A model generated the notes under the pieces. That model searched no databases and was not told where the DNA came from. It saw nothing but the letters and a program-made list of their open reading frames with translations. The position numbers and the translations under genes were made by a program. A stretch of 64,000 bases of DNA, taken from IMG/VR virus record IMGVR_UViG_3300045988_131014, positions 32,001-96,000 of that record, one strand, 5' to 3'. Below, one piece after another: positions 3,227 to 54,725 of the stretch. Every line of letters begins with the position of its first letter. Position 1 is the stretch's first letter. This stretch comes from a virus.

Positions 3227-3406
3227 ATGGTGATTTGTAAAAATTGTTACATTCCGATGATTGGAGTTATGTCGTTTTCAAAGGACAAGCATGAGAAATT
3301 CTGTCGCTGTCCTAAGTGTATGGCAGAAACAAGACATACAAAATTAGACGATTCTGGATTAAATTTTGGAGAATATTTACATAGAGAGATTAAGAAGGGG
3401 AACTAA
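3227..3406 (+). CDS. small zinc-ribbon protein, 59 aa
   Basis: Hand translation MVICKNCYIPM...FCRCPKCMAETRH with two CxxC pairs; AAGGAAGG RBS; below the ORF-track cutoff. Confidence 0.55.
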   Translation: MVICKNCYIPMIGVMSFSKDKHEKFCRCPKCMAETRHTKLDDSGLNFGEYLHREIKKGN

Positions 3407-3413
3407 TTACATA

Positions 3414-3974
3414 ATGGAAATTCAAGAAATGTTGGAGTGGTACTGTGATCATAACATGTACCATTTAAAGAAAATGTGCTATCCAATGTTAATAAAAATC
3501 GGTGGTATATCAAGCAAAGATTATGATGATTTCTATTCTATTGCATTAAGCGTTTTGGCAGATGTCGCTTTAAAATACGATGAAGATAATGATTGTGATT
3601 TTGATGGTTTTTTGGCGAGCTGTATTAATAGAAAATTTAAGACAGAAATCCGTGACCGTAATCGAAAAAAACAAATACCGGCAAAGAAGTTAGAGAGTAC
3701 AAGTAATCTTGTTACAGAAGATGGACTGGAACTTGGAGAAACCATTCCATCAAAGTTTGATACATATGAAGCTGCTTGTGAATATTTGTTTGAAGGTACT
3801 AAGATTCAAAGATATTTGGATAAGTTATCATATACGCAACGCAAAATCGTTTCGCTGTTATCTGATGGATATAAGGCAAAGGAAATCAGAGAATTATTAC
3901 ATATGGATAGCAAACAATATTCTAATAATCTTGCAGCTATTCAAGCATATGAAAATGTAAAAATTTTAATGTAA
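3414..3974 (+). CDS. phage-encoded sigma-70-family (ECF-like) RNA polymerase sigma factor
   Basis: Region-2-like FYSIALSVLADVALKY..FDGFLASCINRKFKTEIRDRNRKKQ and region-4 HTH YTQRKIVSLLSDGYKAKEIRELLHM; start placed at ATG 3414 after the preceding small gene. Confidence 0.7.
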   Translation: MEIQEMLEWYCDHNMYHLKKMCYPMLIKIGGISSKDYDDFYSIALSVLADVALKYDEDNDCDFDGFLASCINRKFKTEIRDRNRKKQIPAKKLESTSNLVTEDGLELGETIPSKFDTYEAACEYLFEGTKIQRYLDKLSYTQRKIVSLLSDGYKAKEIRELLHMDSKQYSNNLAAIQAYENVKILM

Positions 3975-3993: not shown

Positions 3994-5430
3994 ATGGCAA
4001 ACAAAGTAAGAGAAGAAAATATCCCATTAATTAACTATACCAATGAGGTAAAAGATGAAGATGTTAGTGATAATCAGGACGTACAGAGATATTTCTGTAG
4101 TGACAAGCCATTTGTTAATGGAATTGGCGTTACGATTTTAACTGGTGACTATCTTCCACCTTTAATTTTAGCTGAAGTTCCATTAAATGAAGATATCGTA
4201 CAGAAATATATTGTGGATGGTCTTCAGAGAACAACCGCATTAATGCAGATTAGATACGGAAATCATAAATTTACTGGTGCTATTGAAGATAGTGAAATTG
4301 AGTACCAAGAAAAACAGGTAGATGAAAATGGAAAATTCTTAAAAGATGATGACGGGAATTTTGTATGGGAAAAGAAAACATTTGATATTAAAAATAAAAC
4401 ATATGATGATTTTCCAAAAGAACTGAAGAAGCGTTTTGACAATTATCAGCTCAGAATTGCCACATATCAAAATTGTGATATGAAAAAGGTAAGCAAATTG
4501 GTAAGAAAGCTGAATGTACAAAGAGGAATGAATACAAGTCAGAGAGCATTGACTTGGATTCCTACATATGCAAGAAAAATTAAAAATATTGCTGATGAAG
4601 GATTTTTTAAAAATAGTATTGAGTATTCTGACACTGCCAGAAAAAATGGAGAATATATGCAGAGCGTATGCCGATCTGTTATGAATGTTTTTCATTTTGA
4701 TGACTACAAACGTGGTGCAAAAGAAATATGTGATTATCTCGAAGATAATAGTAACATTGAAGAATTCAATACAGTCCATGAATATTTTCAAAGAATCGAA
4801 GCAGCTTGTAAAGATACTTGTAAAGATATTCTTGTCAAAAAAGATATTCCTGTATGGCTGACAGTATTCAGTAGATTTGTAAAATGTGGTTTAGAAGATA
4901 GCAAGTTTGCAGATTTTATTCATGAGTTATCAGGAAAATTACATAGTATTGATGTTAATGGTGTCAGTTACGATTCGTTAAATAAAGAGTCTGGTACTAC
5001 AGACAAAAAACTTGTAGTTGCTAAAATTAATACATATACAGCTTTGATGAACGATTTTTTACATTTTGATATAACAGAAACAAGTAGCACAGAAGTAGAG
5101 AATAACAATACAGAAGAAAATGCTGAAGATAATACGGAAGAAAGTGTTCTTTCCTTTGTTCAAGAAAATGCAAATCCAAATGTGACAGACGAAGATATAA
5201 ACCTTTACACAGACATGGTAGAAGATTGTGTTAAGATTGACGATCCAGTTTATAAAGAGTGTGGAATGGCATTAGTAGCACTCATGGCATATGCTTGTCA
5301 AAATGATAAGGATCAGGATTTTGAAAAATGGATTGAGAATTACAGAAATAAATCTGATTTTAGTTCATCACAGAAAGTTAATTATACATATATGAAACGC
5401 AGCTTTGATAATTTTATAGCAAATGCGTAA
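3994..5430 (+). CDS. DUF262/ParB-like (GmrSD N-terminal type) domain protein with acidic low-complexity insert
   Basis: YIVDGLQRTTALMQI resembles the DGQQR motif of DUF262; AAGGAGG RBS; the C-terminal part is unassigned. Confidence 0.55.
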   Translation: MANKVREENIPLINYTNEVKDEDVSDNQDVQRYFCSDKPFVNGIGVTILTGDYLPPLILAEVPLNEDIVQKYIVDGLQRTTALMQIRYGNHKFTGAIEDSEIEYQEKQVDENGKFLKDDDGNFVWEKKTFDIKNKTYDDFPKELKKRFDNYQLRIATYQNCDMKKVSKLVRKLNVQRGMNTSQRALTWIPTYARKIKNIADEGFFKNSIEYSDTARKNGEYMQSVCRSVMNVFHFDDYKRGAKEICDYLEDNSNIEEFNTVHEYFQRIEAACKDTCKDILVKKDIPVWLTVFSRFVKCGLEDSKFADFIHELSGKLHSIDVNGVSYDSLNKESGTTDKKLVVAKINTYTALMNDFLHFDITETSSTEVENNNTEENAEDNTEESVLSFVQENANPNVTDEDINLYTDMVEDCVKIDDPVYKECGMALVALMAYACQNDKDQDFEKWIENYRNKSDFSSSQKVNYTYMKRSFDNFIANA

Positions 5431-5702
5431 TCAATTTGGTAATAAGCAATAGCTTTTACATAAAAGATGGGCAACGATATGTCGTGAAGTTGCTGTTGCC
5501 CATCTCGCATATCAACTAGGAATAATCCAGAAGTCGATATACATATATAGTATCTCATTTCTATGGCTGAATCAATATCCAAATGACATTCTTCTCGTTC
5601 TGAGTTGGATTATTCCATTATTAAAAATGGTAAATGAACAGAAATTAAAATAGAAATATCAAAATAAAGTTCGATTTCTTTGGAAAATGAAAGGAGAAAA
5701 AT

Positions 5703-6084
5703 ATGATTACAAAGACATTATATACTTGTCAGTTCTGTAATACTGATTATACAAAGAAATGAAAAAGCAATTGAACATGGTAAAATCGCTAAACATTCAA
5801 TGCATTTGATTCGTCTGTATATGATGTGTTTGGATATTCTTGAAAAAGAGAGAATAATCACGTATAGAGAAGACGAACATGATTTACTTATGGATATTCG
5901 TAATGGTAAGTATTTGGATAGCAACGATCAGCCAATCCCAGAATTCTTTGAAATGGTAAATGATTATGAAAAGAGATTGGATTATGCGAAGAAGAACACA
6001 AATCTTCCTGATAATCCTAATTATAAGGCTATCAATGAATTTGTTGCTAGTGTAAATGAAAGGGTGGTAAAAGGTGAAATCTAA
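5703..6084 (+). pseudogene. remnant of an RlaP-like (Pol-beta superfamily) nucleotidyltransferase: C-terminal domain only, joined out of frame to a 19-codon CxxC ORF
   Basis: ATG 5703 gives MITKTLYTCQFCNTDYTKK then TGA 5760. The +1 frame continues EKAIEHGKIAKHSMHLIRLYMMCLDILEKERIITYRED..IRNGKY, typical of the C-terminal half of this family. No N-terminal NTase domain is present upstream. Confidence 0.45.
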
Positions 6085-7426
6085 TCTAAAAATTGAAATT
6101 CCATATGGTGCAAATGAAATTATTCATACCTTACAGAATAATGGATATGAAGCTTTCTTAGTTGGAGGGTGCGTAAGAGACAGTATCCTTGGAAGACCAA
6201 TTCACGATTATGACATTACAACTTCTGCCACACCAGATGAAATGATGGAAGTATTCAAGGACAAGAGAATTATTGAAACTGGTTTGCAACATGGAACTAT
6301 TACCATTGTAATTGACGGTGATGGATATGAATGTACCACTTACAGAATTGACGGTAATTACTCAGATAGTCGTAGACCTGATAGTGTAACATTTACACGA
6401 AATCTTAAAGAAGATTTAAAGCGTAGAGATTTTACAATCAATGCAATGGCATATAATGATGAAGTTGGTCTTGTAGATCCGTTTAATGGTATGGAAGATA
6501 TTAAATACCACAAGATTAGATGTGTTGGTAGAGCAGAAGACAGATTTTCAGAAGATGCATTAAGAATTTTACGTGCTATTCGGTTTGCATCACAGTTGGG
6601 ATTTGTCCTTGAACCTGATACAGATTGGAATATCTCTAAAATGTATAAGAATTTGGAGAATATATCTATTGAAAGGATCAATAGTGAGTTCTGTAAAATT
6701 GCTGCATCGAGTGATTTCTGTGTACAAATGGTCTTATATCACGAAGTATTCTCATTGTTCATTCCTGAAATTAAAGACATGTTTGGCTTTCAACAGAATA
6801 ATCCATATCATATTTATGATGTATGGAATCATACAGTACATGCAATAGAATATTGTGAATCTGATGATTTAGTAACAAGATTAGCTGTGTTCTTTCATGA
6901 CATAGGAAAGCCACGTTGTTATCAAGATAGCGAGGATGGTATTAGACATTTCAAAGGTCATGGAAGAGTCAGTGCTGATATGACTGATAAAATAATGAAG
7001 CGATTAAGATTTGACAATGATACAAGAGAAAAGGTCGTTGAATTAGTCTATTATCATGATGCTACTTTTGAGGTGGGAAAGAAATATATCAAGAGATGGC
7101 TTAATAAAATTGGGGAAGAACAGTTCAGAAGGTTATTAAATGTTCGTAGAGCTGATATTAAAGCACAAGCAGACATTAATCAGGGAACAAGGTTACAGAA
7201 GATTGATAACATCGGATATATTTTAGAAGAAGTCTTACAGGATGATGAATGTTTTTCTCTAAAGGATTTAGCAGTTAATGGAAAGGATTTAATTACTATT
7301 GGATATAAGCCAGGAAAAGAAATTGGTGAGGTATTAAATAATCTGTTGGATTCAGTCATTAGTGGAGAATATATAAATGAGAAAGAAAAACTATTAGAAA
7401 TAGCAGAGAGAAGATTACATGGTTAA
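6074..7426 (+). CDS. cca: CCA-adding tRNA nucleotidyltransferase with HD domain
   Basis: GGCVRDSILGRPIHDYDITT, RRDFTINAMAY, ALRILRAIRFASQLGF and FHDIGKP motifs. Confidence 0.9.
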   Translation: MKSNLKIEIPYGANEIIHTLQNNGYEAFLVGGCVRDSILGRPIHDYDITTSATPDEMMEVFKDKRIIETGLQHGTITIVIDGDGYECTTYRIDGNYSDSRRPDSVTFTRNLKEDLKRRDFTINAMAYNDEVGLVDPFNGMEDIKYHKIRCVGRAEDRFSEDALRILRAIRFASQLGFVLEPDTDWNISKMYKNLENISIERINSEFCKIAASSDFCVQMVLYHEVFSLFIPEIKDMFGFQQNNPYHIYDVWNHTVHAIEYCESDDLVTRLAVFFHDIGKPRCYQDSEDGIRHFKGHGRVSADMTDKIMKRLRFDNDTREKVVELVYYHDATFEVGKKYIKRWLNKIGEEQFRRLLNVRRADIKAQADINQGTRLQKIDNIGYILEEVLQDDECFSLKDLAVNGKDLITIGYKPGKEIGEVLNNLLDSVISGEYINEKEKLLEIAERRLHG

Positions 7427-8339
7427 ATTATTCAGTCATACAGATTTAGATGGAATCGGTTGTGGTATTTTGGCAAAACTTGCATTCGGAGATGATGTAG
7501 ATATTTCATATTGTGATTATGATAACATTGATTCAAGTGTCATGGAGTTTATTGATAGTGAAACAGAATTTGATATGTGTATTATTACAGATATCAGAGT
7601 AAATGAAGATACAGCGAAAATTATTGATGACAGATTTAATAATTTTTATTTATTAGACCATCATCCAACAGCTCTTGGACTTAATAAGTATCTTTGGTGT
7701 TCTGTGACTATTGAGTATGAAGATATGGAACTTGGAACTATTAAAACCAGTGGAACAGAGATGTTTTATTATTGGTTAATCAAGAATGGTTATTTAAAAG
7801 ATTCAGAGACATTAAGAAGATTTGCTGAACTTGTGAGAGATTATGACACTTGGAGATGGTCGGAACTTGGTGGAGATGGGGTTATTTGTAAGCAGGTGAA
7901 TGACTTACTTTATCTGTATGGTCGAGATGATTTTATTCATTGGTGCGTTAACGAGATACGTGGTGAAATATTCCCATTATTATCTGCTAAAGATGAGGTC
8001 GTTCTAAAGATTAAGCAGGATGAAATTGATAGATATATCGAAGAGAAGAACGAAACTATGTTTACCAGTCCTATGTGTGGTAAGGTTTGTGGTTTTGTAT
8101 TTGCAGATAGGTTTGTTAGTGAATTAGGTAATAGACTTTGTAAAATGCATCCTGAAATCGATTTCGTGGCTATGATTGATATTGATGGTTGCACAGTATC
8201 TTATAGAACTGTTAAAGAAGATCTTGATCTTGGTAAAGAGGTAGCAAGTTTATTTGGTGGCGGCGGTCATCCAAAAGCTGCTGGTTCAGAATTTAGTCAG
8301 ACTATTAAGTTAAAAATTATTGAGAAAATCTTCGAATAA
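7419..8339 (+). CDS. DHH/DHHA1-family phosphoesterase (NrnA-like)
   Basis: SHTDLDGIGCG, ITD, LLDHHPT and GGGHPKAAG motifs; the start overlaps the cca stop (ATGGTTAA). Confidence 0.8.
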   Translation: MVKLFSHTDLDGIGCGILAKLAFGDDVDISYCDYDNIDSSVMEFIDSETEFDMCIITDIRVNEDTAKIIDDRFNNFYLLDHHPTALGLNKYLWCSVTIEYEDMELGTIKTSGTEMFYYWLIKNGYLKDSETLRRFAELVRDYDTWRWSELGGDGVICKQVNDLLYLYGRDDFIHWCVNEIRGEIFPLLSAKDEVVLKIKQDEIDRYIEEKNETMFTSPMCGKVCGFVFADRFVSELGNRLCKMHPEIDFVAMIDIDGCTVSYRTVKEDLDLGKEVASLFGGGGHPKAAGSEFSQTIKLKIIEKIFE

Positions 8340-8406
8340 TCTTTAATTCTATTCAAGGCTGATCAGCCAAAATTTCCAAATAAAAGTAACAAGAAATATT
8401 TTTTTT

Positions 8407-8447
8407 CCTATGGTTTTTGCAGACGTGCAAATTCCATAGGATTTTTT
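8407..8447 (+). terminator. rho-independent terminator
   Basis: CCTATGG..TTTGCA-gacg-TGCAAA..CCATAGG followed by ATTTTTT. Confidence 0.75.
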
Positions 8448-8530
8448 ACAACAAAATAATTAAGAAGAAAGGAATTAAGCAGTAACTCCTAGGTAATTAT
8501 GGTTACGTAACCTCTGTAAAATAGTGTATT

Positions 8531-9496
8531 TTGACAGAGAATAATGAAAAAAATAATTCTCAAGGACTACGAGTATTAAGTTTATGTGGTGGAATCTCTT
8601 GTGGAAGAGTTGCATTAGATAAAGCCAATATTTCAGTCAGTGAGTATAACGCATTTGAAATTGAAGAGAATGCAATCAAAATCAGTAGATATAATTATCC
8701 TGATATCAAAAGATACGGTGACGTATTTTCTACCGACTTCAAGGGTTTTAATGGAGTCGATCTATTAATGGGTGGTTCACCTTGCCAGTTCTGGTCGAAA
8801 GCCAAGTGTAGTAAAACAGCAAAATTGAAGAGAGAAATTGATACAGAAGGCGAAGGTTGGAAACTGTTTCAGAAATTTGTGGAAGCAAAGAATAACACAA
8901 ATCCAAAATATTTCCTATATGAAAACAATTATGGAATGGCTGATGAGATTCAAGACGCTATTAGTGAGGAATTGGGTGTACAACCAATTATGATTGATAG
9001 TCAATTATTATCAGCTCAGAGAAGAAAACGTCTGTATTGGACGAACATACCAAATATCACGCTTCCTGATGATAAAGGATTATTAGTGAAAGATGTTATT
9101 TGTGATGATCCAGATTTAGTCAAATACTTTGATGACAGAATCAGGAACACAATGATTAAGTGTGAGAATTACATAAAATATGATCTTGGTGGCAAAGGTC
9201 ATTATTCGCAACAGGACAGGCTGTACTTTTTAGATAAGAAAGCTCCAACAGTACCACGTTGTAGAACAGAAACAAAATTCAATGTTTGGCTTGGTGGAGA
9301 AAAATATAAAAAGACATGTCCATTAGAGATTGAACGACTTCAGACACTTCCAGACAATTATACGGAGTTTGGAATGGATGAGAGTGGCAATGTAAAAGCA
9401 ATGCCTAAGACAAGAAGGTTTGAAGCAATTGGTAACGGATGGACTGTCGATGTTATAGCACATATTTTGAGTTTTATGAAGTGTAATGGAGAATAA
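8531..9496 (+). CDS. dcm: DNA (cytosine-5)-methyltransferase
   Basis: LSLCGGISCG (motif I), GGSPCQFWS (motif IV PCQ), ENNYG (motif VI), QRRKRLYW, GNGWTVDVIAHIL (motif X); TTG start without an obvious RBS. Confidence 0.9.
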   Translation: MTENNEKNNSQGLRVLSLCGGISCGRVALDKANISVSEYNAFEIEENAIKISRYNYPDIKRYGDVFSTDFKGFNGVDLLMGGSPCQFWSKAKCSKTAKLKREIDTEGEGWKLFQKFVEAKNNTNPKYFLYENNYGMADEIQDAISEELGVQPIMIDSQLLSAQRRKRLYWTNIPNITLPDDKGLLVKDVICDDPDLVKYFDDRIRNTMIKCENYIKYDLGGKGHYSQQDRLYFLDKKAPTVPRCRTETKFNVWLGGEKYKKTCPLEIERLQTLPDNYTEFGMDESGNVKAMPKTRRFEAIGNGWTVDVIAHILSFMKCNGE

Positions 9497-9583
9497 CATA
9501 ATATGAAGTTCGCAGTAAAGCGGAATTTCTTCTGAGTTTTCAGAGAATAAATACATATAAAAATAAAGAAAAGAGGTAGCAAA

Positions 9584-10108
9584 ATGAGAGAAACATTAAT
9601 TGTTGTAGATATGCAGAATGATTTTATTGATGGAACACTTGGTACAAAGGAAGCACAGGCAATTGTATCAAATGTAGCAAAGAAAATTAAGGAGTATAAG
9701 GATGCTGGTAAGCAGGTAATTTTTACAAGAGATACACATTCTGAGAATTACTTAGAAACATACGAGGGTAAGCACCTTCCTGTTGCTCACTGTGTAAAGA
9801 ATACTATTGGTTGGCAGATTTCCGATAAGTTAGATTTTGATATTGAGAACGATATTCTGATTGATAAGCCTACATTTGGTTGTTTAAACTGGAAGGATTT
9901 TGGATTTGAAAGCGTTGAGATTTGCGGATTATGCACCGATATCTGTGTGGTTTCAAATGCACTTATTATCAGAGCAAATTATCCTGAGATTGATATTACA
10001 ATAGATGCAAGTTGCTGTGCAGGTGTCACACCTGATACTCACAAGGCTGCATTAGCAACTATGAAGATGTGTCAGATCGAAGTGATTGGAGAGAATAATG
10101 AAGTGTAA
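9584..10108 (+). CDS. pncA: nicotinamidase (isochorismatase-fold PncA)
   Basis: LIVVDMQNDF, FTRDTHSENYLETYEGKHLPVAHCV and CGLCTDICV (catalytic Cys) motifs. Confidence 0.85.
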   Translation: MRETLIVVDMQNDFIDGTLGTKEAQAIVSNVAKKIKEYKDAGKQVIFTRDTHSENYLETYEGKHLPVAHCVKNTIGWQISDKLDFDIENDILIDKPTFGCLNWKDFGFESVEICGLCTDICVVSNALIIRANYPEIDITIDASCCAGVTPDTHKAALATMKMCQIEVIGENNEV

Positions 10109-10652
10109 GAATTATATCATTAATACTTTCAGACATTTTAAGAAAGTCTGTACTCATAAACGTTGGGTATTCTACTATTGCTGTAAAGTGGGAATTCCAT
10201 TTCAAGGGTTAGTACATGATTTATCTAAATTTTCTCCAACGGAATTTTGGGAGAGTGTTAAGTATTATCAAGGTACTTCAAGTCCAATAGATGCTTGCAA
10301 GAAAGAGAATGGTTGGTCAGTAGCTTGGATGCACCATAAAGGAAGAAACAAGCACCATTACGAATATTGGCAGGACAATTTTGATAATGGTGGAAATCCT
10401 ATTGAAATGCCAATGAAGTATAAAAAAGAAATGCTTTGTGATTATCTTGGAGCAGGTAGAGCATATCATGGTAAATCATTTAATTTTGAGAAGGAATTAA
10501 AATGGTGGGAATCTAAGAAAAGTAAACCAATTGCAATGCATCCAAATGACATGGCTTTTATTGATAAGTACATTAATCTGTTTTATGAGTACGAAAACAG
10601 AGAATATGATATTAGAACAATATTTAATCAAATCAAGAAAGAAGGAAAATAA
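10098..10652 (+). CDS. uncharacterised His-rich protein (possible metal-dependent hydrolase) embedded in the NAD operon
   Basis: VHDLSKFSPTEF and WMHHKGRNKHHYEYW motifs; ATG 10098 behind GGAGAG overlaps the pncA end; the ORF-track start 10086 is TTG. Confidence 0.6.
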   Translation: MKCKNYIINTFRHFKKVCTHKRWVFYYCCKVGIPFQGLVHDLSKFSPTEFWESVKYYQGTSSPIDACKKENGWSVAWMHHKGRNKHHYEYWQDNFDNGGNPIEMPMKYKKEMLCDYLGAGRAYHGKSFNFEKELKWWESKKSKPIAMHPNDMAFIDKYINLFYEYENREYDIRTIFNQIKKEGK

Positions 10653-10653
10653 T

Positions 10654-11862
10654 ATGGAGCAGATTATTACAAGTTTGTTGGAGACAGATGCCTACAAATT
10701 GTCAATGGGACAGGCTATTTATCATCAGTTTAGCGATTATAAAACCACTTGGAGTTTTAAATGTCGTAATAAGGATGTTCATTTTACACCAGAAATGGTA
10801 GAAGAGATCCGTAGACAGATTAAATTATATTGTGGTTTGAGATTCACAGAAGATGAACTTACTTATATTGATAATATCAAATGGATGAAAGGTTCATATG
10901 TTGATTTTCTGAGATTGTGGCAGCCAAGATATGAGGATTTTGAGATTACAACAGATTCAGATTGTGGTCTTTCTATCGAAACATTTGGTACATGGCTTAA
11001 TACATCTATGTATGAGATTCCTACACTTGCGATTGTAAACGAAGTATATTTCAGAATGGCATATAACTATGAGGAATTGCTTAATAGTTTCAAAAAGAGA
11101 TTAGATGAAAAGTACGAAAATCTCAGAAGCGGTCATTGGTACGCTGGTACATTTTCTGAATTTGGTCTTAGAAGAAGACTTTCTGCTGAAGCACAGGAGT
11201 TAGCTGTTGAGAAGTTTTCACATTTGAATGATACATTACACAGTCCATCTAAGTTTGTTGGTACATCTAATGTATATCTCGCAAAGAAATACAATCTCAC
11301 GCCTGTTGGAACTATGGCTCATGAATGGATTATGTGTTCTGGTCAGGGCAATCACAAGCACAATCCAGCATATTCAAACTGGTATGCCATAGACGCATGG
11401 GTTAGAGAGTATGGTGTGTTAAATGGTATTGCGCTCACAGACACAATTACAACTGATTGTTTCTTGAAAGATTTTCAGTTGACATATGCAACATTATTCA
11501 GTGGTGTAAGACATGATAGTGGCGATCCGATTGAATGGGGTGAAAAGATGATTAATCATTATGAGTCACTTGGTATCAATCCTAAGACAAAGACACTTCT
11601 GTTTAGTGACAGTCTTGATTTTGAAAGAGCTGATAAGTTATTCAGACACTTCCATGATAGAGTAAACGTTGCATTTGGAATTGGTACTTATTTGAGTAAT
11701 GACACAGATGTTCCCGCTTTAAATATTGTAATGAAAACCACTAAATGTAATGGCATGGATGTTGCAAAAGTGTCTGATGTAGAAGGTAAAGGTATGTGTA
11801 AAAACCCTGATTATGTTGATTATTTAAAGAGATGTATTAATTGGAGAATGAATCATGAATAA
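10654..11862 (+). CDS. pncB: nicotinate phosphoribosyltransferase
   Basis: The N-terminus MEQIITSLLETDAYKLSMGQA is typical of PncB, as are GTMAHEW and LFSGVRHDSGDP. ATG 10654 follows the RBS GAAGGAAA. The ORF-track start 10531 lies inside the preceding gene. Confidence 0.85.
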   Translation: MEQIITSLLETDAYKLSMGQAIYHQFSDYKTTWSFKCRNKDVHFTPEMVEEIRRQIKLYCGLRFTEDELTYIDNIKWMKGSYVDFLRLWQPRYEDFEITTDSDCGLSIETFGTWLNTSMYEIPTLAIVNEVYFRMAYNYEELLNSFKKRLDEKYENLRSGHWYAGTFSEFGLRRRLSAEAQELAVEKFSHLNDTLHSPSKFVGTSNVYLAKKYNLTPVGTMAHEWIMCSGQGNHKHNPAYSNWYAIDAWVREYGVLNGIALTDTITTDCFLKDFQLTYATLFSGVRHDSGDPIEWGEKMINHYESLGINPKTKTLLFSDSLDFERADKLFRHFHDRVNVAFGIGTYLSNDTDVPALNIVMKTTKCNGMDVAKVSDVEGKGMCKNPDYVDYLKRCINWRMNHE

Positions 11863-12481
11863 AATTTTACTTATACCAGGAAGTTTTAATCCAATTACTA
11901 ACGCCCATGTTGATATGGCATTGACTGCTAAAAAAGCGGTTAATGCCGATGCTATATTGTTTATTCCTGCACATGATACATATGTTGCGAAGAAAAAGAT
12001 TTTGATACCTGGATATTGTCGAGTATCGCTGATTAATTCAATGCCAAATTGTGAGGAAAATAATATGTGCGCATCCGAAGTTGAAACAACCAGCTTCTTT
12101 CCACAGAGGACATACAATACTATTACTCAGATAAGAGATATGAATGAAAAAGATTATATTTTCAACGAATACTATATTTGTTTAGGAATGGATAATATTG
12201 AAACACTTACAACTTGGTATAATTGGAAACCGTTTGTTGAGGAATATAATTTTGTAGCATGTGTGAGGGAAGGTCAGAATCTTGAGACTGCTTTAAGAGA
12301 AGCAAATCTTATGGAATATAAAGATCACTTCACAGAAATTCAGATACCAGAAAATCACACTTCTTCAAGTTTGGTTAGAGATTTATGTGAAAAGGGTGAA
12401 TTTGAAAAAGTAAAAGAATTAGTTCCTAGAAATGTATATGAGTATTTAATTCGGTTCTATGATGTGATGAATCGAATGTAG
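11855..12481 (+). CDS. nadD: nicotinate/nicotinamide mononucleotide adenylyltransferase (NadD-like)
   Basis: LLIPGSFNPITNAHVDM ((H/T)xGH-type motif) and TSSSLVRD (ISSTxxR-like); the start overlaps the pncB stop. Confidence 0.75.
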   Translation: MNKILLIPGSFNPITNAHVDMALTAKKAVNADAILFIPAHDTYVAKKKILIPGYCRVSLINSMPNCEENNMCASEVETTSFFPQRTYNTITQIRDMNEKDYIFNEYYICLGMDNIETLTTWYNWKPFVEEYNFVACVREGQNLETALREANLMEYKDHFTEIQIPENHTSSSLVRDLCEKGEFEKVKELVPRNVYEYLIRFYDVMNRM

Positions 12482-12497
12482 GAAGGAGAATATATAA

Positions 12498-13262
12498 ATG
12501 TTTGATGCTAAGAAAGTAAAGAATGAGATCGTAGAGTGGATTAGAGATTGGTTTGAACAGAATGGTAAAGATTGTATGGCAGTAGTTGGAATTTCTGGCG
12601 GTAAAGATTCAAGTGTTGTAGCTGCATTATGTGTAGAAGCTCTTGGAAAAAATAGAGTAATTGGAGTCCTTATGCCAAATGGACATCAATCAGATATTAT
12701 GGATGCATATAAATTATGCAAATTACTGAATATTAAAAGTATTGAGGTTAATATAAAAGAAACTGTAGATAGTGTGTACGATGCTATTCGTTATGGTGTT
12801 TATGATGATACACGACAAGGTTTTGACGAATTAAACATATCTGTACAGTCCAGAATTAATTTACCACCAAGAATTAGAATGGCTACATTATATGCTATTT
12901 CTCAGTCAGTAAATGGTCGTGTTGCTAATACATGTAATCTTTCTGAGGATTGGGTAGGTTATGCTACAAAATATGGCGATGCCGCTGGTGATTTCAGTCC
13001 ATTATCTCAGCTTACAGTAACAGAGGTTAAGGCTCTTGGTCGTGAGTTAGGACTTACATCTGAATTAATTGACAAGACACCTACCGATGGTCTTTGTGGA
13101 AAGACAGATGAAGATAATCTTGGATTTACATATGCAGAATTAGACGCATATATCAGAGATGGAATCGAGCCAAATGAGGAAGTAAAAGCTAAGATTGATT
13201 CAATGCATGAGAAAAATCTGTTTAAATTACAGCCAATGCCAAGTTTTGTGTATCAAGCGTAA
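12498..13262 (+). CDS. nadE: NH3-dependent NAD+ synthetase
   Basis: VVGISGGKDSSVVAAL PP-loop and DWVGYATKYGDAAGDFSPL; AAGGAG RBS. Confidence 0.85.
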   Translation: MFDAKKVKNEIVEWIRDWFEQNGKDCMAVVGISGGKDSSVVAALCVEALGKNRVIGVLMPNGHQSDIMDAYKLCKLLNIKSIEVNIKETVDSVYDAIRYGVYDDTRQGFDELNISVQSRINLPPRIRMATLYAISQSVNGRVANTCNLSEDWVGYATKYGDAAGDFSPLSQLTVTEVKALGRELGLTSELIDKTPTDGLCGKTDEDNLGFTYAELDAYIRDGIEPNEEVKAKIDSMHEKNLFKLQPMPSFVYQA

Positions 13263-13268
13263 ATGAGA

Positions 13269-13321
13269 TACTATATATAGTGTTTGTGGAAGATATAGGC
13301 ACTATATATAGTAATATTTTT
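13269..13321 (+). terminator. rho-independent terminator closing the NAD operon
   Basis: TACTATATATAGTG (13269-13282) pairs with CACTATATATAGTA (13300-13313), followed by ATATTTTT; each arm is itself palindromic. Confidence 0.7.
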
Positions 13322-13364
13322 ACCAAGAAACATAGATTTCCTTGGGTTAGAAAAGAGGTAAAAA

Positions 13365-13568
13365 ATGGCAAAATTAAAGAAAATCGCTGAAATTAAGGCA
13401 TATTACGGATGTGAAGCAAAAGAGGTCGTTGAAACCCTTGAAAATAAAGGGTTTTTGGTGGTCGATGATGATGAAAACGATACTGTCAATAAAATATGGC
13501 ATGTGCTAAAAAATGTAGAAAAACGGATGAAACCGAAGTTTCTTGGTGATTTAGGAGGTGACAAATGA
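13365..13568 (+). CDS. hypothetical protein
   Basis: ORF with AAGAGG RBS; stop overlaps the next start (ATGA). Confidence 0.55.
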   Translation: MAKLKKIAEIKAYYGCEAKEVVETLENKGFLVVDDDENDTVNKIWHVLKNVEKRMKPKFLGDLGGDK

Positions 13569-13849
13569 CAGAAAGTGAAGCTATCGAAGAACTAAAATAT
13601 GATTGTAATGAACTTGGTAAAGCAATCCCATGTGATACTTCATGGGGATGTTCTTTTGAAAATGCTTATGGAATGGCAATACAGGCACTTGAAAAGCAGA
13701 CACCAAAGAAAGTAAAAAATAGCGGAGAGAGAATTCCGTTTGAATGGTATTGTCCTACTTGCGGAGAAATATTGTGTGATGATGGCTACAAAGATATCGA
13801 CATTAAATATTGTGATCAATGCGGTCAGGCATTAGATTGGGAAAATTAA
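13565..13849 (+). CDS. hypothetical zinc-ribbon protein
   Basis: CPTCGEILC..CDQCGQ motif; AGGAGGTG RBS. Confidence 0.6.
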   Translation: MTESEAIEELKYDCNELGKAIPCDTSWGCSFENAYGMAIQALEKQTPKKVKNSGERIPFEWYCPTCGEILCDDGYKDIDIKYCDQCGQALDWEN

Positions 13850-13918: not shown

Positions 13919-14653
13919 ATGAAATATATGGGTTCAAAATCTCGTATAGTTGATAATATTTTACCGATTATTCAAGAAAGATTGCGAGATTATAATATCA
14001 AAACATACATAGAGCCATTTTGCGGTGGTTGTAATGTAATCGACAAAGTTCAGTGTGACACAAAAATCGCTTCTGACAATCATAAATATCTTATTGAAAT
14101 GTTCAAGAATCTAAATCAGATTCAAAATCTCCCAGAATTTATTACAAAAGAACACTATTCAGATGTAAGAGAGTGCTTTAACAAAAGATTGTCTACATAT
14201 CCTGATTGGTATATTGGAGCAGTTGGTTTTCTCTCAAGTTATAACGGCAGATTCTTTGATGGCGGTTACTCAGGTATCGTACATACAAAAGCTGGAACTG
14301 AAAGAAATTATTATGACGAAGCTAAGAGAAATTTGTTAGAACAAATTCCAAGGTTAGAAGATATTCAATTCCAATGTGGAGATTATGAAGAGTTATATTC
14401 TGATAAAGTTGACTGCTTATTTTATTGCGATATTCCATATAAGGGTACGAAACAATATGGATCAAGTAAGAACTTTGATTATGACAGATTTTGGAATTGG
14501 GCTGAGAAGATGAGTGAGAGGAATATTGTCTTAGTCAGTGAGCATGAAGCTCCTTCAGAATGGGAATGTATTTGGCAACAGGAAGTCAAAAGAACGATTG
14601 ACAATACAAAGCGAGTTAAAGCAGTAGAAAAGTTATTTGAAATAAGAGAATAA
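13919..14653 (+). CDS. dam: DNA N6-adenine methyltransferase (Dam/D12 class)
   Basis: MKYMGSKSRI N-terminus, EPFCGGCNV (FxGxG) and YCDIPYKGT (DPPY-like) motifs. Confidence 0.8.
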   Translation: MKYMGSKSRIVDNILPIIQERLRDYNIKTYIEPFCGGCNVIDKVQCDTKIASDNHKYLIEMFKNLNQIQNLPEFITKEHYSDVRECFNKRLSTYPDWYIGAVGFLSSYNGRFFDGGYSGIVHTKAGTERNYYDEAKRNLLEQIPRLEDIQFQCGDYEELYSDKVDCLFYCDIPYKGTKQYGSSKNFDYDRFWNWAEKMSERNIVLVSEHEAPSEWECIWQQEVKRTIDNTKRVKAVEKLFEIRE

Positions 14654-17009: not shown

Positions 17010-18329
17010 ATGTATTGTGCTTATATCACAACATTAAAAGGATTAAGAAAACATAGTAACGCTGATAGATTACAGTGTGTAGAAGTATTTGGACAGAATG
17101 TAATTGTAGATTTGAGTTATCATGAAGGGCAGAAAGTGGTCTTCTTCCCATCTGACGGTCAGTTATCACTTGAGTATGCAACAGATAACAACCTTGTAAG
17201 GAAGAAAGACGAAAGCGGAAACAACATTGGTGGTTATATGGATGCTGAGAAGAGAAATGTAACCGCTATTAGACTTAGAGGTGAGAAGTCAGAAGGACTT
17301 GTATTACCTGTTGAGACGCTTTCTAAGTATACAGATATTTCAAAATTAAAAGATGGCGATCAGATTACAGTTCTTGGTGGTCATGAGATTTGTCAGAAAT
17401 ATATTCCTAGTGGAAAGAATCGTTCAAGAAGTGATGGAAATAGTTCAAATAAGAAGAACAAGTTTCAGAAAGAAACAGTATCATATCCATTTTTTGAGGA
17501 GCATAAAGATACTGCACAGCTTGCATATAATATGTCAGCATTTAAGCCAGGAGATACAATTTATATTACTCGTAAGCTCCATGGAACATCAGCTCGTACT
17601 ATGAAGACTGTTAAGGTTACAAAGAAGAATAGTAAACTGAGAAAGTTCTTACATATGCAGCCAAAGGTTACAAGAGAAGTTTCTGTTGTATCTGGTAGCA
17701 GAAGAGTTGTATTAAAGGATATGACAAAGAATGATGGATATTATTCTGATAATGGATTTAGAAAGAAGTACCACGATTTATTAAAAGACAAGCTTCCTGA
17801 GGGTGCTGAGATTTTCTATGAAATTGTAGGATATGTAAATGAAACAACACCAATTATGGGTTCAGTATCTAATAAAGGAGTTAAGGAAAAAGAATTTACA
17901 AAGAAATTTGGTGACATCACAACATTCTCATATGGTTGTGAGCCAGGCGAAAATGAGATGTATGTATATCGAATGACAATGACAACAGCAGACGGAACAG
18001 TTGTTGAAGTGCCTTGGGAGATTGTAGAGGTATGGTGTGACAAGTTGGGTGTTAAGCATGTACCTGATTTAGAGAAGTTTATTTTTACTACACCAGAAGA
18101 TTTGAAAGAAAGAGTAAATAAATATCTTGATGGTATGCCAGCAGATGAAATCGGTAAGACACATGTTGCCGAAGGTGTAGTTGTTCGTATTGATAACAGA
18201 GCAACATTCACGGCTTATAAGGATAAGGTGTTTGAATTTAAGGTAATTGAGGGGATCGCCAAAGATACATCTGATGTACCTGATATGGAAGAAGCTGAAG
18301 AATTATTTGAGGAGACTTTAAATGAATAA
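17010..18329 (+). CDS. ATP-dependent RNA ligase (Rnl5/DRB0094-like, N-terminal OB-type domain)
   Basis: RKLHGTSAR (nucleotidyltransferase motif I, KxxG) and N-terminal KHSNADRLQCVEVFGQNVIV resembling tRNA-binding OB domains. Confidence 0.6.
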   Translation: MYCAYITTLKGLRKHSNADRLQCVEVFGQNVIVDLSYHEGQKVVFFPSDGQLSLEYATDNNLVRKKDESGNNIGGYMDAEKRNVTAIRLRGEKSEGLVLPVETLSKYTDISKLKDGDQITVLGGHEICQKYIPSGKNRSRSDGNSSNKKNKFQKETVSYPFFEEHKDTAQLAYNMSAFKPGDTIYITRKLHGTSARTMKTVKVTKKNSKLRKFLHMQPKVTREVSVVSGSRRVVLKDMTKNDGYYSDNGFRKKYHDLLKDKLPEGAEIFYEIVGYVNETTPIMGSVSNKGVKEKEFTKKFGDITTFSYGCEPGENEMYVYRMTMTTADGTVVEVPWEIVEVWCDKLGVKHVPDLEKFIFTTPEDLKERVNKYLDGMPADEIGKTHVAEGVVVRIDNRATFTAYKDKVFEFKVIEGIAKDTSDVPDMEEAEELFEETLNE

Positions 18330-19212
18330 ACCTACAATGTGGGTACTCGTTTGACTGAGTGGTAGTGGCAAGTCAACCATTGCTACTCAGATTGCCAATG
18401 AGAATCCAAATACAGTAATCGTATCATCAGACGCAATTCGTGAAGAATTAACAGGTAATTACGAAGATCAAGAACATAACGAAGAAGTGTTTAAGATTTT
18501 TCACGATAGAATCCGCAAGAATTTGGAGAATAAAAAGAATGTAATTGCAGATGCAACTAATCTAACTATGAAATCTCGTAGAGCAATTATGATGAAAGTA
18601 AATGGTTTAAATGTCAGAAAAGTATGTGTAATTATTCCAAAGCCATTTAAACAGTGCAAAAAAGATAATCTACATAGAGAACATCCTGTACCTGATTTTG
18701 TGTTGGATAAGCAGATTAGAAAATATCAGATTCCGTTCTACGAGGAAGGATTCGATGAGATTATTATTCATAAATTTCATAATGCTAATGCAATGACCAC
18801 AGGTGGATTGATTGCTAAAATGAAAGATTTTGACCAGAAGAATCCTCATCATACTATGACTTTAGAAAATCATTGCTTTAATACATATGATTTATTTACA
18901 GAAAAAGGACATAAAGCTGAATACAATATTGGAGCAGTTCTTCATGATTATGGCAAACTATACTGCCAGACAATTGATGAAAATGGTATAGCTCATTATT
19001 ATGACCACCCATCTGTCGGATGCTATTTGGTTTTAGAGAGTTTAATGGAAGAGTTTAATAAGGTTGTATTAGATATATGTTTCCTCATCAATTACCATAT
19101 GATGCCTTTTAGTTGGGATACTGATAAAGCAAAGCAGCGTTGGAAAGAAAGATTTGGAGAATATAAATATAAGATGCTTTTAGATTTCAATGAATGTGAT
19201 AAAGCGAGGTAA
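18322..19212 (+). pseudogene. polynucleotide 5'-kinase (P-loop) fused to HD phosphohydrolase, interrupted by an in-frame TGA at 18352-18354
   Basis: MNKPTMWVLV-TGA-LSGSGKSTIATQI: the stop sits where the Walker A glycine is expected. Downstream are IADATNLTMKSRR, then HD-domain motifs PHHTMTLENH and AVLHDYGK. ATG 18322 overlaps the ligase stop. Confidence 0.65.
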
Positions 19213-19397: not shown

Positions 19398-19871
19398 ATG
19401 AGGATAGAATTAATTAGATTAAAATTTAACGACACTCATTCGTACAAGTATAAGCCATTTAAGTATTGTTGTGATGAAATTCAGAATAATGAGTGCATAG
19501 AATTTACAAACGAAAATTTAACAAATTTTAATGTTGATTATGATAAAGAATATGGTTTTATTCCTCAGCTCTGTACTTCACATACAGAAGTTATTACATC
19601 GTATGAAGATGAATGGGAACAGACAGACAATTATCCAATCCAGTTTTGTCCTCATTGTGGCAAAAAGATTGAGATTTCAGTCGTAGAAGAGATTAATGTA
19701 TCTGATAAGTACAATGAATTATCTAAGCAGCGTAATGAATTATGGAAGAAGTGTCAGAGAACAGATAGTAAGAAGAAAGAATCTGAATTAAGAGAGCAAG
19801 TTAGAAAGCTTGATAAACAGATTGATAGTTTCTATTGGTTAGATGAGTGGAAAGAGGACGTATATGTATAA
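19398..19871 (+). CDS. hypothetical zinc-ribbon protein
   Basis: FCPHCGKKIE motif; GGAG RBS within the preceding stop region. Confidence 0.55.
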   Translation: MRIELIRLKFNDTHSYKYKPFKYCCDEIQNNECIEFTNENLTNFNVDYDKEYGFIPQLCTSHTEVITSYEDEWEQTDNYPIQFCPHCGKKIEISVVEEINVSDKYNELSKQRNELWKKCQRTDSKKKESELREQVRKLDKQIDSFYWLDEWKEDVYV

Positions 19872-20277
19872 ACAAATTATTATTGCTAGAAAAGATTTGA
19901 ATATGAGTTCTGGGAAGCTCGCAGCTCAAGTCAGCTACGGCTCTATGGCATTTCTTAGTTGGTTTATTAGAAATAATGCCGATTTAGATGGTCATGTCGA
20001 TGGCTATATTGACGAAGATATTCTTCACAATTGGATTGAGGGTGAATTTACAAAATGTGTTCTTCAAGCCAAGAATAAGAATCAGTTGCTAAAAGCTAAG
20101 ACTATGGCAGAAGAATTAGGAATGGTTGAAGGCAAAGATTTCTGGCTCATAAAGGATAACTATCACACTGAATTAGAACCAGAAGAAGATGGTAGAACAC
20201 TTACTGTAATTGGTTTTAGACCAATGGACAGTGAACTTATTGATCAGATTGGAAGAAAATATCATTTATATATGTAG
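19864..20277 (+). CDS. peptidyl-tRNA hydrolase 2 (PTH2)-like protein
   Basis: KQIIIARKDLNMSSGKLAAQVSYGS and C-terminal LTVIGFRPMDSELIDQIGRKYHLYM parallel the Pth2 pattern K.v.vvR.DL.M..GK.aAQ and ID..TG.LkLY. Confidence 0.65.
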   Translation: MYKQIIIARKDLNMSSGKLAAQVSYGSMAFLSWFIRNNADLDGHVDGYIDEDILHNWIEGEFTKCVLQAKNKNQLLKAKTMAEELGMVEGKDFWLIKDNYHTELEPEEDGRTLTVIGFRPMDSELIDQIGRKYHLYM

Positions 20278-23099: not shown

Positions 23100-24284
23100 A
23101 TGGCATTTGCAACTACCATTTATGTTGTTATTTATCCAAAATTTTTCAATGAAAGATTGGATTGTACCAAATTGAAATCCTATGACAATATATCAGATGT
23201 AGATTTAGCAAGTTGGCAAGATTTAATCAAATTACAGAAAGAACATCTAACGCAGCTTGAAGCTGATTCATTAGAACTAATCAAAGAAAAGACAGAGAAA
23301 TTTAATACATATACTTCGATAATTCCTGTCTCTATGGGTAAGGATTCAATGCTTACCTGTCATCTAGTCAGAAAATTATATCCAGAAACAAAAGCAATAT
23401 TCAATAATACATCACTTGATTGTGTTGACACATATAGAATGATTAAGACTTTCCCTAATTGTGAGATTATGAATCCTGAGAAGGGATTTTACCAATATAT
23501 TAAAGAACAAAATATTATATTTAATAGAATTTCTCGTGGTTGTTGTAGAATCTTCAAAGTAGGTGAAATGGTTAGGCGTTTAGACCATAACAAACCATAT
23601 TTAATGTGGATGGGTATGCGAAACGAAGAATCTAATACTAGAAGCGGATATCAGGATGAATGGGTAAACGAAGCTGAATGGGGAAATACATGTTGGCAGG
23701 GAATACTACCAATAAGAAAATGGGACGAAATAGATGTCTGGTTATATACAATATGGAAAAATATTGAAATAAATTCAAAGTATAAAAAGGGATATTCAAG
23801 GGTTGGCTGTGCCGTATCGTGCCCTTACTACACCAAATCAACGTGGATTCTTGATAAATATTGGTATCCAACAATGAGAAATCGTTGGGAGAATATTTTA
23901 AAAGAAGACTTTATAGGCAATTCAAAATGGTTAGTTATGAATTGCACAGTAGATGAATATATCAATCAAGCTTGGAATGGTGGCGTGTTTAGAGATGAAC
24001 CAACAAAAGAGGTTATTAAAGAATATGCTAAGTATAGCAATTTAGATGAGAAAGTTGCTGCACAGTATTTTAACAAATATTGTGACAATGGATGCAAGTC
24101 TCAATCTGGTAAGTTGAAGCGAATTAAGGCGAAGGATGTTATTGGTATGAACTTAAAATATCATGGAAGGAATATCAATAAGTTTTATTGTAAAAAGTGT
24201 CTCATGAAAATGTATAACATGGATGAAGAAAAATGGAACAAACAAGTAGAAAGATTTAAACAATCAGGATGTGATTTGTTTTAA
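23100..24284 (+). CDS. PAPS reductase-like PP-loop protein (IbrA-like) with Cys-rich C-terminal region
   Basis: IIPVSMGKDSMLTCHL (SGGKDS-like PP-loop) and C-terminal Cys clusters GCAVSCPYY, CDNGC, CKKC; start uncertain (no RBS at ATG 23100). Confidence 0.55.
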   Translation: MAFATTIYVVIYPKFFNERLDCTKLKSYDNISDVDLASWQDLIKLQKEHLTQLEADSLELIKEKTEKFNTYTSIIPVSMGKDSMLTCHLVRKLYPETKAIFNNTSLDCVDTYRMIKTFPNCEIMNPEKGFYQYIKEQNIIFNRISRGCCRIFKVGEMVRRLDHNKPYLMWMGMRNEESNTRSGYQDEWVNEAEWGNTCWQGILPIRKWDEIDVWLYTIWKNIEINSKYKKGYSRVGCAVSCPYYTKSTWILDKYWYPTMRNRWENILKEDFIGNSKWLVMNCTVDEYINQAWNGGVFRDEPTKEVIKEYAKYSNLDEKVAAQYFNKYCDNGCKSQSGKLKRIKAKDVIGMNLKYHGRNINKFYCKKCLMKMYNMDEEKWNKQVERFKQSGCDLF

Positions 24285-53663: not shown

Positions 53664-53708
53664 ACAGTCATGCAAAAGTTCTTTGCCATATACAAGGAGG
53701 AAATACGA

Positions 53709-54725
53709 TTGGGCAAAGATCTTAAAGGAAAAGAATTGGGACAAGGAATAATACAGAAAAAGAATGGGAGGTATGAAGCAAGATATATAGATAGATTTGG
53801 TAAAAGGGTATCAATTTCAGGCAGAGATCTAAAAGATGTTAAAAAGAGATATAATGAAGCGATTTACGAAAATGACAAGCAAATAAACGTAAAAGACAAT
53901 ATAACACTTGACGAATGGTATAAGAAATGGATGAACGTTTACAAGTTTGATATTATTCGTGAAAACACAAAAAGACATTATAATAATGTATATTATAAGC
54001 ATATATCTCCGAGTCTTGGGAATTTTCAATTAGGAAGTATTACTCAATATCAAATCAAACAACTTATCAAAGAATTAAAGAGTAGTGGGTATCAATACGA
54101 AACGTGCAACAAGGTAAAAATTCTTCTTGTTGATATTTTTAACAAAGCTATGATTAACGAATATGTGCGAAAGAATCCAGCAAAAGGAATATCATTAAAA
54201 AGAGACGAAGAAAGGGACGTAAGAGTTTTGTCGCAGGATGAACAAACGGTATTCTTTGATTGTTGTAAGGGAACATTTTATGACAATCTGTTTGTTACGG
54301 CAGTATCAACGGGAATGAGGATTGGAGAACTTGCTGCTTTAAGATGGACAGATGTTGACTGGGATAGTAGAGTAATTCATGTAACTAGAACTCTCGTATA
54401 TCAGAAATATGAAAGCGACAGTCAAAAGGAATATCATTTTGAAAAGCCAAAGACAAGAACTAGCTTAAGAGATATACCAATCAACAGGCAGTGTGAAATA
54501 GCATTAAAGAAACAATTTATTCAAAAGTCTGTTGTTGCTACTAAGCAACCAATTACAAAGAAAGTTGACGATAAATATGCTGATTTGTTATTTACATCAA
54601 AATTCAACACACCATTAAATTCGCAAGTTGTATGTCAAGCAATTAACAAAATTATTACGTTTACCAGCAGACACCATATGAGTTCATCAATACCGATGAA
54701 ATCATTGGGAAATAGCGGTATTTAA
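53709..54725 (+). pseudogene. int: Tn916/phage-type tyrosine integrase, C-terminally truncated (lacks HxxR and catalytic Tyr)
   Basis: It has the N-terminal arm-binding GRYEARYIDRFGKRVSISG, the core-binding domain and the Arg box TGMRIGELAALRW. The ORF ends after QAINKIITFTSRHHMSSS with no H-x-x-R...Y segment in any frame. TTG 53709 lies 8 nt after AAGGAGG (ORF opens at ATG 53670). Confidence 0.7.

Follow-up and report, generated by a model that had tools for sequence, protein, structure and literature searches.

What does a bacteriophage gain from genes predicted to rebuild nicotinamide adenine dinucleotide (NAD+) from nicotinamide? The question is raised by five genes in the order pncA-DUF5662-pncB-nadD-nadE, which together occupy 9584-13262 of a 64,000-nucleotide (nt) stretch of viral DNA, positions 32,001-96,000 of the IMG/VR record IMGVR_UViG_3300045988_131014. 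This stretch is referred to here as the window, and all coordinates are those of the window unless they are given with the L-number of a related locus. We propose that the five genes form a phage-encoded deamidating NAD+ salvage operon that would keep NAD+ up during infection, most likely against host NADase defences, a reading to which we give about an even chance of being correct.

Structure of the operon and its four NAD enzymes

All five open reading frames (ORFs) were confirmed on the + strand at 9584-10108, 10098-10652, 10654-11862, 11855-12481, and 12498-13262, exactly where an initial annotation of this DNA had described five same-strand genes with abutting or overlapping ends. The pncA and DUF5662 genes overlap by 11 bp and pncB and nadD by 8 bp, DUF5662 and pncB are separated by 1 nt, and nadD and nadE by 16 nt. 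Shine-Dalgarno sequences of the GAGG/GGAG type lie ahead of all five ATG starts. The operon is preceded by a conserved 5' leader of approximately 70 nt (9517-9583, + strand) that includes the ribosome-binding site AAAGAGG, and in about 59 related loci the homology starts at ~9489 or ~9517 regardless of the identity of the upstream gene. Scanning of the leader for sigma-70 promoters gave no convincing site on the + strand, and an Rfam scan of 8300-13600 returned no riboswitch or other match. The phage encodes a sigma-factor-like protein (3366-3974), and its promoters may therefore be non-canonical.

The 3' end of the operon is marked by a terminator-like hairpin followed by a T-run (13269-13321, + strand), in agreement with the 14-bp-stem terminator annotated initially. 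The stem has 14 perfect base pairs, or up to 20 pairs counting G-U, and the hairpin proper (13269-13313) is followed by ATATTTTTAC. The folding energy of -25.9 kcal/mol corresponds to a z-score of -7.55, and none of 200 shuffled sequences folded equally well. The stem sequence occurs a single time in the whole window. Among related loci, the hairpin is kept directly 3' of nadE in 61, independent of the NadE allele, and leader and hairpin accompany the cluster in about 60 whatever the flanks. Given the translational coupling and the conserved leader and terminator that bound it, the five genes are probably expressed as a unit, and the operon signals and their recurrence far exceed chance expectation.

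The initial assignments of pncA, pncB, nadD, and nadE were borne out by profile matches and intact catalytic residues, and every protein motif quoted in support of them was present. All of the catalytic residues that we checked were found on alignment, with none missing, and they do not vary among the 47-66 distinct alleles compared from related viral contigs.

The product of pncA (9584-10108, 174 aa) is a predicted nicotinamidase of the isochorismatase superfamily, which would convert nicotinamide to nicotinate and NH3. It matches Pfam PF00857 (Isochorismatase) at 9.5e-30 and 104.4 bits (cut-off 27), and its top match among solved structures is the P. horikoshii pyrazinamidase/nicotinamidase 1ILW (4e-16). 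The triad D9/K95/C121 aligns with the catalytic D10/K94/C133 of 1ILW and is invariant in 60-62 alleles. An Asp-His-His metal site sets nicotinamidases apart from other isochorismatase-like hydrolases, and D50, H52, and H69 of PncA align with the zinc ligands D52, H54, and H71 of 1ILW and are invariant in 62 alleles. PncA scores below the NCBIfam equivalog cut-off PRK11609, with 36.3 bits compared to 174 and a match to the N-terminus only, and is a short divergent form nearest the archaeal 1ILW type.

The pncB gene (10654-11862, 402 aa) is predicted to encode nicotinate phosphoribosyltransferase, which would form nicotinic acid mononucleotide (NaMN) from nicotinate and phosphoribosyl pyrophosphate (PRPP). 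The protein exceeds the cut-offs of both NCBIfam models, with 479.9 bits for PRK05321 (cut-off 379) and 402 bits for TIGR01514 (cut-off 269.55), matches Pfam PF04095 (NAPRTase) and PF17767 (NAPRTase_N), and aligns end to end with its best solved relative, 1YIR, at 8.9e-96. His223 within the sequence GTMAHEW aligned with 1YIR and is invariant in 66 alleles; we take this residue of the GT(x)AHE motif to be the ATP-coupled phospho-histidine site.

The next gene, nadD (11855-12481, 208 aa), is predicted to encode an adenylyltransferase of the NadD/NMNAT family that would convert NaMN and ATP to nicotinic acid adenine dinucleotide (NaAD). The protein matches Pfam PF01467 (CTP_transf_like) with 54.9 bits (cut-off 21) and narrowly misses the TIGR00482 equivalog cut-off, with 100.8 compared to 112.45 bits. 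Its best solved relatives are the Bacillus NadD structures 2QTR and 3HFJ (1.3e-10), with which the motifs GSFNPITNAH (residues 9-18) and SSSLVRD (170-176) align, and both motifs are invariant in 47-49 alleles. Close relatives of this protein carry the source name 'NMNAT protein [Caudoviricetes sp.]'.

The last gene, nadE (12498-13262, 254 aa), would encode a single-domain ammonia-dependent NAD+ synthetase that forms NAD+ from NaAD, ATP, and NH3. It matches NAD_synthase and TIGR00552, the latter with 184.9 bits (cut-off 63.65), and its best solved relatives are uniformly NH3-dependent NAD synthetases, with 2E18 at the top (8.9e-32). The PP-loop SGGKDS, at residues 33-38, does not vary among 65 alleles, and the protein has no glutaminase domain. 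All four enzyme assignments are as secure as sequence data can make them, PncA and NadD being divergent members of their families.

Acting in turn, the four enzymes would carry nicotinamide through nicotinate, NaMN, and NaAD to NAD+: PncA would deamidate nicotinamide with release of NH3, PncB would join the nicotinate to PRPP, the NadD-type enzyme would adenylylate the resulting NaMN, and NadE would amidate NaAD. Since NadE is predicted to depend on ammonia, the NH3 freed by PncA could be reused in the final step. The benefit would be the maintenance of NAD+ in an infected cell in which NAD+ is being split into nicotinamide. The likeliest cause of such splitting would be host NADase defences with SIR2, TIR, or SEFIR effectors, and NAD+-consuming enzymes of the phage itself could also contribute.

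Recurrence in related phages and a host-type core

Close relatives of PncB occur on at least 167 viral contigs in IMG/VR, and we compared the loci of the best 80 of these, whose contigs are mostly 90-215 kb in size, the bulk of them 90-196 kb, with one of 216 kb (jumbo phages being those above 200 kb). The survey of related phages for gene order that the initial annotation had suggested thus found the order pncA-DUF5662-pncB-nadD-nadE kept in most of the best 80 loci. The variants include clusters without DUF5662 or nadD, swapped alleles of PncA or NadE, and insertions of endonuclease-like genes. The PncA and NadE alleles are mosaic, with 41-97% identity overall and 48-97% for NadE. More distant phage-like contigs keep the same five-gene order, with DUF5662 proteins 68-72% identical, and cluster proteins are also found on contigs of 0.3-1.25 Mb that are consistent with integrated prophages. 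Median dN/dS (the ratio of nonsynonymous to synonymous substitution rates) was 0.13 for pncA, 0.12 for DUF5662, 0.04 for pncB, 0.09 for nadD, and 0.25 for nadE, and purifying selection acts on all five genes.

Several of the relatives carry additional genes in or near the cluster. Homing-endonuclease-like ORFs, judged by eye to be of the HNH/AP2 and GIY-YIG types, occur in L004, L005, L007, L021, L022, L055, L062, and L067, where the insertion sites are the nadD-nadE and DUF5662-pncB junctions and the position following pncA. A frameshift splits DUF5662 in L005, the sole such case seen. An ORF of approximately 211 aa with a CxxxCxxC motif (FGCHYSCPYC) resembling that of radical S-adenosylmethionine proteins lies between pncA and DUF5662 in three loci (L007:4811-5455, L008:4810-5445, and L062:4192-4851). 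A sirtuin-like SIR2 protein of 246 aa is encoded a few kb upstream of the NAD cluster in L014, L016, L032, L073, and L259, and in L014 and L259 a Tpt1/KptA RNA 2'-phosphotransferase gene is also found upstream (in L259 within the region 5434-7533). In L169, a 225-kb contig, genes for a NadR-like protein (CTP_transf_like plus AAA_28) and for PnuC (NMN_transporter) at 1-898 lie about 4 kb upstream of the NAD cluster (4424-8049).

The origin of the operon was examined with the 80 best PncB matches in species-representative genomes. Chromosomal PncB proteins of Agathobacter, Roseburia, Butyrivibrio, Lachnospira, and other Lachnospiraceae share 77-85% identity with that of the phage. Of the 80 host loci, about 40 have pncA as the gene immediately before pncB, and about 15 have nadE immediately after it. 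Both the identity of PncB and the shared pncA-pncB(-nadE) order suggest that the core of the operon probably derives from the host pncA-pncB(-nadE) genes. None of the 80 host loci contains DUF5662 or a gene closely homologous to the phage nadD, and the GC content of the phage is 34%, compared to approximately 40-45% in most of them. The phage cluster is thus probably a host-type core to which an adenylyltransferase and DUF5662 were added, with a GC content adjusted to phage composition. The same gene order, as pncA-pncB1-nadE, is known from Pseudomonas (PMC7318152).

That the block might be host chromosome was rejected by the gene content of the window and by the viral contigs on which the cluster recurs, in keeping with its initial assignment to a phage. 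The window encodes a DnaE-type DNA polymerase (PHROG 405, ~1e-276), a RecJ-like exonuclease, RecD/Dda-like and DnaB-like helicases, a minor tail protein, a YorF-family protein, an ATP-dependent DNA ligase, NrdD/NrdG, and a dUTPase, and its GC content is uniform at 30-36%. Three tyrosine recombinase/integrase genes are present, at 3-725 (cut by the window start), 53670-54725, and 55500-56348 (- strand), together with genes for a PemK-family toxin (1301-1666) and a helix-turn-helix (HTH) regulator. Coding strand and GC skew flip at approximately 54 kb, beside two of the integrases. The carrier is probably a large, integrase-encoding temperate phage of gut Lachnospiraceae, resembling SPbeta in its predicted DnaE-type polymerase and YorF-family protein. 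A megablast search of the region against GenBank phages gave no match.

The DUF5662 protein

The second gene of the operon (10098-10652, + strand) encodes a 184-aa, all-alpha protein matching Pfam PF18907 (DUF5662) at 7.9e-33, and is the least explored part of the operon. Among 48 diverse homologues there is no variation at H20, H40-D41, S43, K44, E49, H80, N84, H86, H87, W91, E111, and Y123, and almost none at H13, D115, and H148. The resulting pattern, H..HD..H..HH..D, is metal-binding-like. An AlphaFold2 model, again all-alpha, had a mean predicted confidence (pLDDT) of 96.2, and a Foldseek search with this model against PDB and BFVD gave non-significant matches headed by the HD-GYP structures 4MCW and 4R8Z (E 0.22-0.31), with other HD proteins scattered lower among them. 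A permissive Pfam scan of the 48 members gave one marginal HD match (E 0.054), and sequence and profile searches of DUF5662 against solved structures found nothing relevant. We tentatively regard an HD-like metal-dependent hydrolase as a lead rather than a finding; such an enzyme would probably aid the NAD chemistry or remove a defence-related nucleotide.

The family is large: one search gave more than 8,000 matches, a second yielded 2,859 cluster representatives at E ≤ 0.001, and a search of the literature for DUF5662 found nothing relevant. Members are fused to a 2-thiouracil desulfurase (two proteins), to the HAD domain of 'Swiss army knife' RNA-repair proteins, and to a CTP_transf_like adenylyltransferase, fusions that link the family to nucleotide chemistry. 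The last of these occurs on a phage-like contig (L174:6001-9149), where one gene joins DUF5662 to an Nmnat-like CTP_transf_like domain and is followed by a 184-aa ORF and then a NAMPT gene. The intervening ORF has no kinship with DUF5662. By its gene content, the L174 cluster looks like a setting of the kind seen in NARP2, the phage Nampt-Nmnat pathway described below, that includes DUF5662.

DUF5662 also stands immediately upstream of pncB in three gene orders: that of the present operon, nadE-DUF5662-pncB-pncA (L190 and L191), and pncA-DUF5662-pncB..nadE (L197). A general linkage of the family to NAD genes was rejected, as such genes lie within 6 kb of DUF5662 in only 3 of 80 diverse viral loci. 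The usual neighbours among these 80 loci are DNA/RNA ligases, Lar, gyrase, and NrdD.

Known phage NAD+ pathways and the role of the operon

The closest precedents are the phage pncB-nadD-nadE clusters of the 'NAD-jumbo phages', such as Kuafu_71, in a study that also mentions phage pncA and reports complete salvage or Preiss-Handler pathways in 174 of 668 gut jumbo phages (PMC11662467; Microbiome 2024). That study explicitly put forward the hypothesis that Preiss-Handler clusters counter NAD+ depletion, and argued for a pairing, in phages, of NAD+ synthesis with enzymes that consume NAD+. Those clusters and the present operon share phage-borne, physically clustered pncB, nadD, and nadE genes from gut metagenomes. 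They differ in that the published phages exceed 200 kb and belong mainly to Bacteroidota hosts, whereas the contigs considered here are mostly ~90-215 kb with hosts that are probably Lachnospiraceae. Here, moreover, pncA lies within the operon so that the route would start from nicotinamide, DUF5662 is embedded, and the core probably derives from a host operon. With that operon of Lachnospiraceae the phage cluster shares the enzymes and the order of pncA, pncB, and nadE. The host operons, in contrast, lack DUF5662 and a linked close nadD, and the phage copy has a phage-like GC content and phage-specific flanking signals.

Three phage NAD+ reconstitution pathways invite comparison. NARP2 (Nampt plus Nmnat) was shown experimentally to rebuild NAD+ from nicotinamide (bioRxiv 10.1101/2024.02.11.579819), and shares with the present operon the start from nicotinamide and PRPP, an adenylyltransferase of the same superfamily, and carriage by phages. 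It proceeds, however, in two amidated steps via nicotinamide mononucleotide (NMN), whereas the present operon would take four steps via nicotinate, NaMN, and NaAD, with a NAPRTase in place of Nampt and an additional NAD synthetase. PncB carries the NAPRTase_N domain rather than NAMPT_N, with a weak match to the PHROG Nampt family (1.9e-18), and the sole phosphoribosyltransferase of the window is a bona fide NAPRTase. NARP1 (Adps plus Namat), whose substrate is ADP-ribose, and NARP3 (PnuC plus NadR; PMC13464706), whose substrate is nicotinamide riboside, share with the operon the proposed purpose only. Pfam annotation of the window (~650-56,000) revealed no PRPP-synthetase-like (Adps) or NAMPT-type (Namat) gene, and neither PnuC nor NadR was found in the window by Pfam annotation. 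The initial annotation had presented the four-enzyme route as distinct from NARP1 and NARP2. This distinction stands on gene content, and extends to NARP3, but the accompanying suggestion of novelty does not, since both the clusters and the idea had been published (PMC11662467). The gene set and the counter-defence hypothesis are thus already in print, and the enzymes themselves are textbook. What is specific here is a compact nicotinamide-starting operon, in integrase-encoding Lachnospiraceae phages of ~150 kb, with a visible derivation from a host operon and an embedded, conserved DUF5662. A literature search for 'NARP4' found nothing relevant.

Among public phage records, PncB homologues occur in huge phages of the LR7565xx series, Agrobacterium phage Atu_ph07, and Sinorhizobium phage Phosso. 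Phosso (PV764938), a cultured phage of 469 kb, has nadE, pncB, Nmnat, and a PncA-like 'hydrolase' within ~6 kb. It differs in its loose layout, with MutT-like and hypothetical genes between, in a PncB that is 30% identical, and in being a jumbo phage of a proteobacterium; DUF5662 was not noted there. In Phage Phass-1 (L084, OQ749652), an annotated nicotinamidase gene directly precedes genes for ribose-phosphate pyrophosphokinase and nicotinamide phosphoribosyltransferase (5998-9100), a NARP1-like pair. This arrangement is odd, because a nicotinamidase would destroy the nicotinamide used by NARP1.

Two DNA methyltransferase genes bracket the NAD operon, one of the C5-cytosine type upstream (8531-9496) and one of the Dam-like D12 class of N6-adenine methyltransferases downstream (13919-14653). 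Farther upstream are genes for tRNA-Gln(TTG) (2266-2339), tRNA-Met(CAT) (2494-2569), a GmrSD_N/DUF262-like protein (3994-5430), a CCA-adding enzyme (6074-7426), and a DHH phosphoesterase (7419-8339). Farther downstream are those for an RNA ligase (17010-18329), an AAA_33 kinase (18487-19212), a PTH2 peptidyl-tRNA hydrolase (~19864-20277), and a PAPS-reductase-like protein (23100-24284) that could have a role in DNA modification. The tRNA/RNA-repair set made up of the CCA-adding enzyme, DHH phosphoesterase, RNA ligase, AAA_33 kinase, and PTH2 suggests protection against host tRNA-cleaving nucleases. PADLOC returned no defence-system match for the five operon proteins, and the label of early genes that the initial annotation gave to the surroundings of the operon is an inference. 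The possibility that NAD+ serves a phage NAD-dependent DNA ligase was rejected, as the ligase of the window is of the ATP type.

A counter-defence role for the operon is plausible on the basis of its gene content and of this neighbourhood of methyltransferases and tRNA/RNA-repair genes. In its favor, the related 225-kb L169 contig pairs the cluster with NadR-like and PnuC genes, and so appears to combine two NAD routes in one phage, a NARP3-like pair and the five-gene cluster. Both NARP2 (10.1101/2024.02.11.579819) and NARP3 (PMC13464706) indicate that salvage-type routes can defeat NAD+ depletion.

Several considerations weigh against the counter-defence reading. A deamidating route consumes PRPP and three ATP equivalents, and its three later steps each release pyrophosphate. 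With PRPP and three ATP-consuming steps needed, the route may therefore be slow as NAD+ and ATP collapse. Most candidate hosts already possess pncA-pncB(-nadE), and the gain would therefore be one of dosage or timing only. The pathway requires NaMN, and the sequence leaves undecided whether NadD prefers NaMN or NMN: its score lies below the TIGR00482 cut-off, and its motif resembles that of eukaryotic NMNATs, which accept both. NAD genes are rarely near DUF5662 in diverse viral loci, as noted above. The sirtuin-like SIR2 and Tpt1 genes beside the cluster in relatives fit recycling for phage enzymes, and the integrases, HTH regulator, PemK toxin, and contigs up to 1.25 Mb make a benefit to the lysogen possible.

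The recycling role can be put more generally as auxiliary metabolism, in which the operon would boost or recycle NAD+ for replication and for phage NAD+ consumers, independent of host immunity. SIR2 and Tpt1 consume NAD+ and release nicotinamide, and their position a few kb upstream of the cluster in the five loci named above argues for this explanation, as do the RNA ligase, kinase, CCA-adding enzyme, and PTH2 of the window and the published argument that phages pair NAD+ synthesis with consumers (PMC11662467). The 64-kb window, however, has no recognisable SIR2, Tpt1, ADP-ribosyltransferase, or NAD+-dependent ligase, and the cluster is retained in many relatives without SIR2 or Tpt1 nearby, and we consider auxiliary metabolism on its own somewhat unlikely. 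Lysogenic conversion, in which the prophage-expressed operon would improve the niacin salvage and NAD+ supply of a Lachnospiraceae lysogen in the gut, appears less probable still. It is favored by the three tyrosine recombinases with the HTH regulator and PemK toxin, by the cluster proteins on 0.3-1.25 Mb contigs, by the operon having its own conserved leader and terminator, and by a preprint that reads nadE and pncA of a Eubacterium ramulus prophage as host-complementing genes. Against this, host genomes commonly encode pncA-pncB(-nadE) already, the operon is co-oriented within a long block of replication and nucleotide-metabolism genes away from the integrase and repressor, no sigma-70-like promoter was found upstream of it, and the phage allele was seen in none of the 80 best matches in species-representative genomes, where identity reached 85% at most.

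The similarity of PncB to host PncB, and the pncA-pncB(-nadE) order common in hosts, could also be explained if pncA-pncB-nadE were captured by chance as passenger DNA without a selected role. That explanation is largely refuted by the conservation data, and we give it almost no credence: the cluster recurs in at least 167 viral contigs with dN/dS of 0.04-0.25 and invariant catalytic residues, its GC content has been adjusted to the 34% of the phage, nadD and DUF5662 have been added, and it survives allele swapping and endonuclease insertions. Recycling for phage enzymes, benefit to a lysogen, and counter-defence are not mutually exclusive. A bolder form of the counter-defence reading, which we think unlikely, is that the operon represents a fourth, distinct phage NAD+ reconstitution pathway, a deamidating one that defeats NADase immunity in gut Firmicutes, with DUF5662 as an enzymatic component. 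DUF5662 would then be a metal-dependent hydrolase that acts on an immune signal or on a product of the NADase, or that drives the three pyrophosphate-releasing steps forward. This part for DUF5662 is suggested by its recurrent place upstream of pncB in three gene orders and by the Nmnat-like fusion beside NAMPT.

Should the operon prove to protect against immunity that depletes NAD+, a nicotinate route would join the three validated phage NAD+ reconstitution pathways. The setting would then be abundant Lachnospiraceae phages of the human gut, in which defence and counter-defence are almost unexplored. The operon also offers a concrete handle on DUF5662, a family of thousands.

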